IMG/VR virus record: IMGVR_UViG_2718218136_000001
Length of the DNA stretch: 64,000 nucleotides
Direction: 5' to 3' (one strand)
Source of the DNA: a virus
Lineage: Duplodnaviria > Heunggongvirae > Uroviricota > Caudoviricetes
Shown one piece after another: positions 50,043 through 54,445 of the stretch (position 1 is its first letter; every line of letters starts with the position of its first letter). The translations under genes and the position numbers were made by a program. Below the pieces are notes generated by a model. The model searched no databases. It saw only the letters and a list, made by a program, of their open reading frames with translations, and had not been told where the DNA came from.

Positions 50043-50264
50043 ATGGCTACTGTCCCTACCCCAACTCATCCTGAATTCATCTGGCGCTTCTATTCCTGCC
50101 AGAAACGTCACTATCACTTCGTTATTGCACCGACAGAAGATGAGGCCCGTTCTCAGCTTCCTGACGCTCCCTGCATTTTCTCTGCCCGCTTTTCCACTGA
50201 TTCGCGCAACTCTCTCAGTTACTGGTGCCTCCCTGTTAACGCTTCTGCTCAGGAGGGACTATGA
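50043..50264 (+). CDS. Icd-like protein, second copy
   Basis: 73 aa, highly similar to the first copy (shared PEFIWRFYSC..HYHFVIA.TEDEARSQLPD.PCIF.ARFST.SRNSLSYW). Confidence 0.7.
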   Translation: MATVPTPTHPEFIWRFYSCQKRHYHFVIAPTEDEARSQLPDAPCIFSARFSTDSRNSLSYWCLPVNASAQEGL

Positions 50265-51376
50265 GAACGTCATTAGTCACCCGTGAAGAAATGATTGAGG
50301 CAATTGAACAGCACACATCCTGTATCAGTACCAGGGATATACCGGGCGTTATTGCCAACTACTTCATGATCACCAAACAACTTTACCGGAGAAAGGACAA
50401 GAACGCTGTTCACCGCATTCTGTTGTCTGATATCCGCGAATACCTGCTCGAACAGGGGCATCTGAATTACGCAACCGTCGCAGCCGAAACACGCAAGGAG
50501 GCACACAGAATGAAAGCAACTAACGTTAAATCAGAAAAAACTCATGCACCTTCAGTTCAGGAATCGGAGCTGGTGGTTGTTCAGAATCAGTCTGATGAAA
50601 TTCCCGTTCTGGAATGGCTGGGAGTGCGTGTAGTGACAACTAAGATCCTTGCTAAGGGGTATGGGACAGATGCGGATAACATCAAGAAGAACTTTTCCCG
50701 TAATGCTGAACGTTTTTGTGAAGGCAAGCATTTCTATAAAGTTATTGGAGATGATTTGAACAATTTGCGGGTGACTTTAAGTAACTCACAAAATCCTATC
50801 TCTCCTAAAGCCCGCTCACTCATCCTCTGGACGGAACGCGGCGCAGCCCGCCACGCTAAAATGATCGAAACCGATCAGGCATGGGCATTCTTTGAAAAAC
50901 TGGAAGACAGCTACTTCCGACAAAAAGAACAGCAACCGATCGCAATCCCCCAGACGCTTCCAGAAGCTCTGCGCCTTGCTGCCGAACTGGCTGAACAAAA
51001 GCAACTTCTGGAACAGAAAGCCCATCAGCTAAATCAGCAGCTGGTGGCCGCAGCCCCCAAAGTCGATTTTGCCGACCGGGTATCAGTGGCTAAGGGGATC
51101 CTGATTGGGAATTTTGCAAAGGTCGTTGGACTTAAACAAAATGCGCTGTTTGCCTGGTTACGGGAGAACGGCATTCTGATAGCGTCCGGCGGCCGTAAAA
51201 ATGTACCGTTCCAGCAGTACATAAACGCCGGATATTTCACAGTGAAAGAAGTGGTGCTGGATGATGAAGAGGGCTACCAGATACGGCTGACGCCCCAATT
51301 AACGGGGAAAGGCCAACAGTGGTTGACGCGTAAACTGCTCGATGCTGGCTTGTTAAAACCGGTGGCGGCTGAATAA
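50261..51376 (+). CDS. antirepressor-like protein, second copy, with a different central domain
   Basis: 371 aa; N- and C-terminal regions parallel Ant (LVTR.E..EAI..HT.C..TR.IPG.IANYFMIT; C-terminal PQTLPEALRLAAELAEQK...GKGQQWLT); unique central segment PVLEWLGVRVVTTKILAKGYG. Confidence 0.7.
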   Translation: MRTSLVTREEMIEAIEQHTSCISTRDIPGVIANYFMITKQLYRRKDKNAVHRILLSDIREYLLEQGHLNYATVAAETRKEAHRMKATNVKSEKTHAPSVQESELVVVQNQSDEIPVLEWLGVRVVTTKILAKGYGTDADNIKKNFSRNAERFCEGKHFYKVIGDDLNNLRVTLSNSQNPISPKARSLILWTERGAARHAKMIETDQAWAFFEKLEDSYFRQKEQQPIAIPQTLPEALRLAAELAEQKQLLEQKAHQLNQQLVAAAPKVDFADRVSVAKGILIGNFAKVVGLKQNALFAWLRENGILIASGGRKNVPFQQYINAGYFTVKEVVLDDEEGYQIRLTPQLTGKGQQWLTRKLLDAGLLKPVAAE

Positions 51377-51408: not shown

Positions 51409-52260
51409 TTATTGCGCGCTTTCGGGGTTGTCGTTTACTGGCTGCCCCTTCTTGGTTTTACGGCTGCGCGTAACTGATGCGGCTGACTTAACCTTTTTCT
51501 CTTCGCGAGTGATGGCAATTTGTTTTTTTACATTTTCAATATCTGCCAGGCGATATATTTTTGCTTGCGGCCAGCGGTCGCAGATGATCGGTTCTATGGA
51601 GTCATAAAGGCTAAATTTTGCTTTTTCGAATTCACCGTTGATGATGATTCCATCACGGAGAGTTTCATCGCAGATAAACACGCCACACAGCGGTACATGG
51701 TAACTAACTGATTTACCATCATTGTAGTTAGGGCTACTGGAGATGTAGTGGACGCGCAGCATTGTTTCGCTAAAGCCGTGTACACGCATACGGAATTTTT
51801 CATCCTCCGGGTACTGCCTCATTAGCTCTTTTGTTGCTTCCAGGTTCTCTATGTATTTCGCACTGTGCTCATTGATCCCCGCGCTTTTTTGGATGCGAAT
51901 GTCCTTATCAATCAGATGAATAATGCGGCCAGCGGTCATGTTGACGCTGTTCACAGCTTCTGTCTGATAAGTTGTAACCTTGCGCACACCGCGAAGGATG
52001 TTAGGCACTGGATATAAAATAGTCTTTGGGATATTGAGGTCTGGGTACTGTTCCAGTTCCCGCGCCATTAAAGTCCATTTATCAATTTCAGCCTGAATGC
52101 TGTCCGTTTCTTTGAACGGTAGAACGACAACCGGGCGTACAGGACGACCGTCGCTGGCGGTATCAACGTGTTGGGCGCGTGCAACAGCTTTTTTTAGAAA
52201 GAGATCCCTGAAGCTGACGAACTCCTGGTACAGTTGTTCGCCGTAGACATAATTTATCAT
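51409..52260 (-). CDS. c1: C1 repressor of lysogeny
   Basis: 283 aa, the length recalled for P1 C1; downstream of coi on the same strand; its operator sequence recurs throughout the window. Confidence 0.8.
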   Translation of the reverse strand: MINYVYGEQLYQEFVSFRDLFLKKAVARAQHVDTASDGRPVRPVVVLPFKETDSIQAEIDKWTLMARELEQYPDLNIPKTILYPVPNILRGVRKVTTYQTEAVNSVNMTAGRIIHLIDKDIRIQKSAGINEHSAKYIENLEATKELMRQYPEDEKFRMRVHGFSETMLRVHYISSSPNYNDGKSVSYHVPLCGVFICDETLRDGIIINGEFEKAKFSLYDSIEPIICDRWPQAKIYRLADIENVKKQIAITREEKKVKSAASVTRSRKTKKGQPVNDNPESAQ

Positions 52261-52354: not shown

Positions 52355-52371
52355 AGATTTATTAGTGCATT
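52355..52371 (-). promoter_or_regulatory. C1 operator between coi and c1
   Basis: Reverse complement atgcactaataaatcta. Confidence 0.45.
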
Positions 52372-52580
52372 TATTGTGAGTCTAACTGGTTAGTTGCCAT
52401 GAGATATTCGATTGTGTCAGTGAGGTCATCCAGGTCGTCTTGGGTGATGCGGTACTCCTGATTGGATATCTTTGAGTAGTGTTCAGCAATGGCGCGGGCT
52501 GCGTCGGTTTCGGCAGGGTCTACAGATAAAGCGTTAGAGCAATGTCTAACGTCGTCGATGGTTGGTTGAATGAAAGCCAT
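52371..52580 (-). CDS. coi: C1 inactivator Coi
   Basis: 69-aa acidic ORF immediately upstream of c1. Confidence 0.75.
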   Translation of the reverse strand: MAFIQPTIDDVRHCSNALSVDPAETDAARAIAEHYSKISNQEYRITQDDLDDLTDTIEYLMATNQLDSQ

Positions 52581-52901: not shown

Positions 52902-52918
52902 ATTGCTCTAATAATTCT
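52902..52918 (+). promoter_or_regulatory. C1 operator just upstream of loxP
   Basis: attgctctaataattct. Confidence 0.55.
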
Positions 52919-52961
52919 TGATTTTTATGCGCAGCTGGACGTAAACTCCTCTTCGGGCCTA

Positions 52962-52995
52962 ATAACTTCGTATAGCATACATTATACGAAGTAAA
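52962..52995 (+). other. loxP-type Cre recombination site with variant right arm
   Basis: ataacttcgtata gcatacat tatacgaagtaaa; left arm and spacer match canonical loxP, right arm ends in aaa where canonical loxP has tat. Confidence 0.85.
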
Positions 52996-53184
52996 CTTAA
53001 GGGTTATTGAACATGAACAATTTACCTGTAAATCCATACAGTTCAATACCTTATCAGGTCAAATAGTGATCACTTGATCATTTGATCAAGATTGCGCTAC
53101 GTAAAATCTGTGAAAAGTTGGCAGTGTTAGTGCTCCAGATTTCGCGTAGCGCACTTAGCACCACCAATCAATCAGAGGTGAAAA

Positions 53185-53406
53185 ATGGGATATTCAGCTG
53201 CTAAAGTGTCCACTCATCTTGAGCTTGAGAAAAACCGTGGTTACTGGCGGGCAAAAGGGTTTGAGCGTGATAGTTACCAACTGTCATTATCTCGCGGTGA
53301 AGAGAAAATAGAACGCACGCGCGGTCGCTGGCGTTTCTATGACGAGAACCATAAACAGGTAAAGGCAGAGCCGATCCTGTACACTTTACTTAAAACCATT
53401 ATCTGA
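53185..53406 (+). CDS. small hypothetical ORF between loxP and cre
   Basis: 73-aa ORF with an RBS-like aggtg upstream; may be non-coding promoter region. Confidence 0.25.
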   Translation: MGYSAAKVSTHLELEKNRGYWRAKGFERDSYQLSLSRGEEKIERTRGRWRFYDENHKQVKAEPILYTLLKTII

Positions 53407-53413
53407 GTGTTAA

Positions 53414-54445
53414 ATGTCCAATTTACTGACCGTACACCAAAATTTGCCTGCATTACCGGTCGATGCAACGAGTGATGATGTTCGCAAGAACCTGATGGAC
53501 ATGTTCAGGGATCGCCAGGCGTTTTCTGAGCATACATGGAAAATGCTTCTGTCCGTTTGCCGGTCGTGGGCGGCATGGTGCAAGTTGAATAACCGGAAGT
53601 GGTTTCCCGCAGAACCTGAAGATGTTCGCGATTATCTTCTATATCTTCAGGCGCGCGGTCTGGCAGTAAAAACTATCCAGCAACATTTGGGCCAGCTAAA
53701 CATGCTTCATCGTCGGTCCGGGCTGCCACGACCAAGTGACAGCAATGCTGTTTCACTGGTTATGCGGCGGATCCGAAAAGAAAACGTTGATGCCGGTGAA
53801 CGTGCAAAACAGGCTCTAGCGTTCGAACGCACTGATTTCGACCAGGTTCGTTCACTCATGGAAAATAGCGATCGCTGCCAGGATATACGTAATCTGGCAT
53901 TTCTGGGGATTGCTTATAACACCCTGTTACGTATAGCCGAAATTGCCAGGATCAGGGTTAAAGATATCTCACGTACTGACGGTGGGAGAATGTTAATCCA
54001 TATTGGCAGAACGAAAACGCTGGTTAGCACCGCAGGTGTAGAGAAGGCACTTAGCCTGGGGGTAACTAAACTGGTCGAGCGATGGATTTCCGTCTCTGGT
54101 GTAGCTGATGATCCGAATAACTACCTGTTTTGCCGGGTCAGAAAAAATGGTGTTGCCGCGCCATCTGCCACCAGCCAGCTATCAACTCGCGCCCTGGAAG
54201 GGATTTTTGAAGCAACTCATCGATTGATTTACGGCGCTAAGGATGACTCTGGTCAGAGATACCTGGCCTGGTCTGGACACAGTGCCCGTGTCGGAGCCGC
54301 GCGAGATATGGCCCGCGCTGGAGTTTCAATACCGGAGATCATGCAAGCTGGTGGCTGGACCAATGTAAATATTGTCATGAACTATATCCGTAACCTGGAT
54401 AGTGAAACAGGGGCAATGGTGCGCCTGCTGGAAGATGGCGATTAG
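53414..54445 (+). CDS. cre: Cre tyrosine recombinase
   Basis: 343 aa beginning MSNLLTVHQNLPALPVDATSD and ending MVRLLEDGD, the well-known Cre sequence; about 420 bp downstream of the lox site. Confidence 0.97.
   Translation: MSNLLTVHQNLPALPVDATSDDVRKNLMDMFRDRQAFSEHTWKMLLSVCRSWAAWCKLNNRKWFPAEPEDVRDYLLYLQARGLAVKTIQQHLGQLNMLHRRSGLPRPSDSNAVSLVMRRIRKENVDAGERAKQALAFERTDFDQVRSLMENSDRCQDIRNLAFLGIAYNTLLRIAEIARIRVKDISRTDGGRMLIHIGRTKTLVSTAGVEKALSLGVTKLVERWISVSGVADDPNNYLFCRVRKNGVAAPSATSQLSTRALEGIFEATHRLIYGAKDDSGQRYLAWSGHSARVGAARDMARAGVSIPEIMQAGGWTNVNIVMNYIRNLDSETGAMVRLLEDGD

Follow-up and report, generated by a model that had tools for sequence, protein, structure and literature searches.

The recombinase Cre and its target site lox serve phage P1 in circularising infecting DNA and in resolving plasmid dimers. 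A 64,000-nucleotide stretch of DNA from a virus of the Caudoviricetes (IMG/VR record IMGVR_UViG_2718218136_000001; hereafter the window) contains a lox site that departs from canonical loxP at the outer end of one arm, the same end that is altered in the engineered sites lox66 and lox71. The locus raises the question of whether such an arm makes the site directional or weakens its use by Cre, as a reading of the sequence without database searches had proposed, or whether the site is a working natural variant. Our analysis indicates that it is very probably the latter: a functional natural allele of loxP, near-neutral or at most mildly weakened and slightly deleterious, and a polymorphism that confers no direction on the reaction.

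Sequence and setting of the lox site

Positions 52962-52995 (+ strand) read ATAACTTCGTATAGCATACATTATACGAAGTAAA, that is, ATAACTTCGTATA-GCATACAT-TATACGAAGTAAA: loxP with two substitutions (32 of 34 positions identical). This is the sole match to loxP in the 64 kb window at up to three mismatches, and 100 dinucleotide-preserving shuffles of the window returned none. The site has the lox architecture of 13 + 8 + 13 bp with an asymmetric spacer, and its parts were placed by alignment with the annotated lox of P1, P7 and phiW39. On the + strand these are a canonical 13-bp arm, ATAACTTCGTATA, at 52962-52974 (13 of 13 positions as in loxP); the canonical 8-bp spacer, GCATACAT, which is the crossover region, at 52975-52982; and the variant arm, TATACGAAGTAAA, at 52983-52995 (11 of 13). 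Spacer identity decides which lox sites can recombine together, and here the spacer is that of loxP. The sequence-only reading was right about the left arm and the spacer. It had further described the outer three positions of the right arm as changed: the outer end is indeed altered and the arm asymmetric, but only two of the three positions differ (T to A at 52993 and T to A at 52995, arm positions 11 and 13), position 12 being unchanged. The end of the arm thus changes from TTAT to TAAA, and we refer to the allele as TAAA.

In its conventional orientation lox has ATGTATGC as the top-strand spacer (PMC8860596). The + strand of the window is the conventional bottom strand, which makes the altered arm the left recombinase-binding element (RBE), the side altered in lox71. 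Written conventionally this left RBE is TTTACTTCGTATA, with its changes at positions 15 (52993) and 17 (52995) in the standard arm numbering, which we take from PMC5766204; the canonical arm corresponds to the right RBE of the conventional orientation, here read from the bottom strand.

The surroundings of the site are syntenic with P1: lox lies between c1/coi and cra/cre and is surrounded by the operator, promoter and LexA elements of P1. To the left, on the - strand, are two genes of immC, the c1 repressor gene (51409-52260) and coi (52371-52580). To the right, on the + strand, are cra, the Cre-associated ORF, recognised from the annotation of relatives (53185-53406), and then cre (53414-54445), a full-length tyrosine recombinase ORF of 343 amino acids that begins 420 bp downstream of lox. 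Its product matches P1 Cre at 342 of 343 residues (99.7%), the sole difference being E22D, in keeping with the earlier description of the Cre as canonical. Mapping of the P1 annotation places the C1 operator Oc1e at 52902-52918 (+) and the promoter P4cre (+; -35 TTGATT at 52918-52923, -10 TAAACT at 52942-52947), both from AF234172 94724-94769. On the other side of lox it places the LexA-controlled promoter P2coi on the - strand (-10 at 53019-53024, -35 at 53041-53046; AF234172 41-68) together with its LexA box, CTGT-N8-ACAG, at 53024-53043 (AF234172 46-65). The sequences of all four elements are conserved in the window, and by the mapped annotation lox lies in two leaders, one running rightwards from P4cre to cra/cre and the other leftwards from P2coi to coi/c1.

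Compared with loxP of P1 (AF234172 / X03453), which is identical in P7, phiW39 and SJ46, the site has the same 34-bp architecture, spacer, position and flanking promoters; it differs in the cre-proximal arm, where the outermost and the third-outermost pair are exchanged from A:T to T:A. Judged by its letters, its synteny and the adjacent cre, 52962-52995 is the genuine lox of a P1-like (Punavirus) phage-plasmid, a family member in every feature that sequence can test, and the earlier identification of a natural lox site is borne out on the same grounds.

Over a 20-kb stretch around lox, the window shares 95-97% identity with many P1-like plasmids of Escherichia. Beside lox, in the cre regulatory region, the window has lost a further P1 feature: at the position of 'Dam methylation site 1' (53015-53018) it reads GAAC instead of GATC (T to A at 53017). 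The change lies directly beside the -10 of P2coi and, among ~150 related loci, is shared only with one metagenome contig, L120, a further TAAA carrier whose right flank and cre are identical to those of the window. Directly left of c1, at 50261-51376, the window has a KilAC-domain antirepressor gene where P1 has pacB. The same arrangement occurs in pPEC399_2, pEC13-3 and an E. fergusonii plasmid, and TAAA carriers are found with both arrangements.

Occurrence of the TAAA allele

The window differs from the nearest phage record by three T to A changes within 25 bp (52993, 52995 and 53017), a concentration that could point to a sequencing or assembly error in the window. Relatives in the phage database have canonical TTAT in eight of eight cases (P1, P7, phiW39, SJ46, 813R1, 673R5, phi456 and MH422554). 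A 53-nt query across the arm, run against larger collections, matched TAAA exactly in 6 of 669 E. coli complete-genome records and in 8 of 663 PLSDB plasmids; pooled, these amount to 11 distinct accessions, in which the allele was confirmed by alignment. A flank-anchored pattern that left all 34 lox positions free found it at 1 of 79 loci in IMG/VR, 1 of 50 in metagenome contigs and 0 of 4 in species-representative genomes. Its frequency is ~1% across the collections searched. With exact TAAA in 11 complete plasmids from different laboratories, in one IMG/VR record and in one metagenome contig, and with the 53017 change present in contig L120 as well, the probability of an error is negligible: that explanation is refuted by the recurrence of the allele in independent records. 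The comparison with other P1-like plasmids that the sequence-only reading had called for has in this way settled the doubt about re-sequencing that accompanied it, the allele recurring in at least 13 independent public sequences.

The plasmids that carry TAAA are complete circular plasmids of 92-112 kb. They come from Korea, China, Thailand, Colombia, the Czech Republic and the UK, and from human, dog, pig, poultry farm and vegetable sources. Given complete circular plasmids from six countries, it follows that carriers persist.

The canonical 34-bp lox was found at 74 of 79 IMG/VR loci and 48 of 50 metagenome loci (~95%), whereas flank positions -7, -5, -1 and +34 vary freely in the same two sets. 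From this difference between core and flanks, the 34-bp core is evidently under purifying selection, and because of that selection TAAA is possibly slightly deleterious rather than strictly neutral. TAAA is the only non-canonical lox that was found repeatedly; other variants are singletons in the sample. The single-step intermediates TAAT and TTAA had no match in IMG/VR, and the E. coli and PLSDB searches contained no class of matches at 98.1%. Textbook loxP is accordingly not invariant in nature: ~1% of P1-like phage-plasmids carry one two-base allele, with Cre unchanged. Searching full texts for the exact arm, in both orientations, yielded only an unrelated chicken TNF primer; by that search TAAA is apparently undescribed as a natural allele, the same arm having been measured earlier as a member of a library. 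A small practical use follows, in that annotation pipelines and screens for loxP contamination should allow TAAA.

Recombination and directionality

In the mechanism that we propose, Cre would bind the two 13-bp arms and exchange strands within the 8-bp spacer, and the two swapped pairs, the first and third from the outer end of the cre-proximal arm, would be contacted only via the minor groove. Swaps between A:T and T:A keep the minor groove AT-rich and leave its acceptor atoms in nearly the same places. The beta4-5 loop of Cre occupies the minor groove of the outer three base pairs (PMC8860596), where Lys244 hydrogen-bonds with O2 of Thy16 and Thy17, while Asn245 contacts only the phosphate at position 17 (PMC5766204). 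Because the changes are A:T to T:A swaps in outer pairs that are read through the minor groove, little loss of binding is expected, and the cooperativity of Cre binding would temper the effect of the altered arm. The allele fits the known tolerance of Cre at these positions.

Published measurements bear on this expectation. The 13-bp arm TTTACTTCGTATA, with the same spacer and a canonical second arm, was a member of a synthetic library in the deep mutational scan of Yamauchi et al. 2022 (PMC9586403), which was performed in yeast with induced Cre and has a narrow dynamic range; it was not recognised there as a natural allele. The arm was assayed with one wild-type loxP partner and in competition with a lox2272 pair, so that the variant is one arm of four, as against two of four in the natural pairing. 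For the exact arm, the S1 File of that study gives 486 loxP-cut versus 464 lox2272-cut reads and 17 uncut reads (1.8%), that is, 51.2%, a figure whose yardstick is the range of the 39 single substitutions (46.2-61.3%) and not the wild-type value. The component single changes of the natural arm score 54.2% and 57.2%, and in these data the effect of a single altered arm is small. Cre-expressing E. coli tolerates a nearly random sequence in one of the four arms, and among efficiently recombined arms ATA is significantly preferred at the outer end (Sheren et al., PMC2018622); because of this preference some cost of TAAA is possible. That Cre would recombine the TAAA lox has indirect support in the published score of its arm and in the maintenance of its carriers as complete plasmids, and strongly reduced function is unlikely. 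We propose that the TAAA lox would recombine at near wild-type efficiency and without directionality.

A different view is that the asymmetric arm lowers the affinity of Cre far enough to bias or lock the reaction, as it does with lox66 and lox71. The resemblance to these sites consists in one arm altered at its outer end and, for lox71, in the altered arm being the left one; the preference for ATA in efficient arms and the very strong conservation of the canonical sequence in nature also speak for some attenuation. However, five outer bases are replaced in lox66 and lox71 (TACCG, which includes G:C), against two A:T to T:A swaps here, and the engineered sites work only as an opposite-arm pair. 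Recombination between lox66 and lox71 runs one way as the partners are mutated in opposite arms and yield a double mutant and a wild-type site. No partner of that type accompanies the present site: the window has one lox-like site, and its copies are identical. Every copy in a P1 dimer or in terminally redundant DNA has the same altered arm, so that a spacer crossover yields the same site again, the products equal the substrates and the reaction is symmetric. No double-mutant product can form in this system, because every partner site has the same arm, and among 141 related loci there was no natural site with the mirror change in the opposite arm. Even a meeting of TAAA with canonical loxP would, by the same logic, give again one of each. 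It is on crossover logic rather than experiment that we conclude that no directionality can arise. The exact arm also scores inside the single-substitution range, and its carriers are stably maintained plasmids found worldwide, with no compensating change in Cre. An attenuated or directional lox is for these reasons distinctly improbable. The earlier suggestion of directional recombination is left unsupported by the identity of all copies and the lack of an opposite-arm partner among the relatives, and that of reduced affinity is at best weakly favored by two minor-groove swaps and a score of 51.2%.

Cre was compared among the 13 carriers that have cre. It is identical to P1 Cre in pFORC64.1; elsewhere the changes are E22D, I180V, P68T+P234S, E150K (in one carrier) and A178S/A249S/A252S/P, those at A178, A249 and A252 being equally common among non-carriers. 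All carriers with an intact Cre retain the DNA-reading residues 241-245 and 259-263; in L152, a carrier record from a poorly annotated assembly, cre is frameshifted. No substitution is common to the Cre of the 13 carriers, and since one of them has a Cre identical to that of P1, a compensatory change was rejected. A separate observation concerns phage vB_EcoM-813R1, in which cre (L003 2215-3246) has a stop at codon 42 and two CDS in its annotation. Either a sequencing error or a P1-like phage that is naturally cre-null may account for this.

In the preferred, bottom-strand-first pathway the conventional left element holds the initially inactive protomer (PMC8860596). An effect of the variant left element on the order of strand exchange is speculation, and the TAAA lox offers a natural, mildly asymmetric site for studies of arm affinity and strand-exchange order.

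Transcription, origin and other natural variants

The position of lox in two leaders raises the possibility that the allele acts on expression, with a weaker lox RNA hairpin and a second TAAACT tuning the levels of Cre and Coi under selection. P4cre and P2coi both read through lox in the P1 annotation, as noted above, and the predicted hairpin loses stability on both strands (+ strand, -14.7 to -11.7 kcal/mol; - strand, -16.0 to -12.8 kcal/mol). The variant also creates TAAACT at 52992-52997, identical to the -10 of P4cre. By eye, however, there is no acceptable -35 upstream of the new hexamer, and a consensus scan found no promoter in either allele, a scan that also misses the annotated P1 promoters and is hence uninformative; a new promoter was rejected for want of a usable -35. 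The hairpin lacks a U-tract, so that no terminator is predicted, and there is no sign that it regulates anything. Nor does an allele at ~1% frequency show any sign of positive selection. A regulatory role of the variant is unlikely, and a selected effect on Cre and Coi levels through hairpin and hexamer is highly improbable; our preferred reading remains a near-neutral allele of a working lox.

How this allele came to be distributed as it is was approached through an alignment of 98 loci over 3.1 kb around lox, 12 of which carry TAAA, the window included. The right flanks of carriers represent at least six haplotypes and the left flanks several, and a clonal origin was rejected on this ground. 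Some carriers are identical to non-carriers over -260 to -1 and +1 to +400; over the full 3.1 kb, carrier L150 and non-carrier L079 differ by five substitutions (all between +31 and +399) and four single-base indels. A hybrid with a secondary lox such as loxB was likewise rejected, the flank immediately right of the variant arm being ordinary P1-like sequence. The pattern of flanks fits two origins: an old allele shuffled by recombination, or a double change that recurs. The double change probably happened a single time or a few times, after which recombination carried TAAA from one P1-like backbone to another. Exchange at lox itself may have helped the spread: as a crossover point, lox would uncouple the left flank from the right arm.

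The recurrent alternative, which concerns origin only, is that the double change arises repeatedly by templating, with GTAAACT copied from the sequence 50 bp upstream (52941-52947). The variant makes GTAAACT at 52991-52997, identical to the upstream heptamer that contains the -10 of P4cre, and turns a direct repeat of 7/10 into one of 9/10 (GA[C/A]GTAAACT). Two simultaneous changes, with no single-step intermediates found, would be explained in this way, as would the many haplotypes, some of which match non-carriers for hundreds of base pairs on both sides. On the other hand, the microhomology available for the switch is only 2 nt per side, and the repeat was noticed post hoc, with a rough estimate of ~0.03 for chance coincidence. 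P1-like elements are, moreover, highly mosaic and lox is a crossover point, so that recombination explains the pattern equally well. We consider a templated origin unlikely. A broader version, in which TAAA is a one-step templated copy of the P4cre -10 GTAAACT with a phenotype of its own, for example changed Cre or Coi expression by way of the weaker hairpin in the two leaders or, through the left element, a shift in which strand pair Cre exchanges first, is very improbable.

The flank-anchored searches returned further lox variants. Three singletons from IMG/VR have canonical arms and a changed spacer: GCGAACAT (L042 2605-2638), GCATGCAT (L067 1524-1557) and GCGTTCAT (L074 4527-4560). By their sequence these would be natural heterospecific lox sites; such spacers would affect partner compatibility and are probably a more interesting lead than the arm allele. 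Two P1-like contigs have singleton arm variants. One, ATAATTTCGTATA (L073 2867-2900), lies in the arm opposite to the variant arm of the window, and the other, ...GAAGTTAC (...GTTAC; L144 6271-6304), is changed at the same outer position as the window's variant.

Canonical or P1-type lox was also encountered outside its usual hosts. The record of Lactococcus phage Q33 (JX564242.1; L155 154-187) has a full canonical 34-bp loxP flanked by the portal gene and the minor capsid gene; it most likely entered the record as an artefact of cloning or of a sequencing vector. P1-type lox is present as well on short contigs of two non-enterobacterial genomes, one of 399 bp assigned to Acinetobacter idrijaensis (L092) and one of 3761 bp from a Bacillota MAG (L091); both regions are probably assembly contamination.
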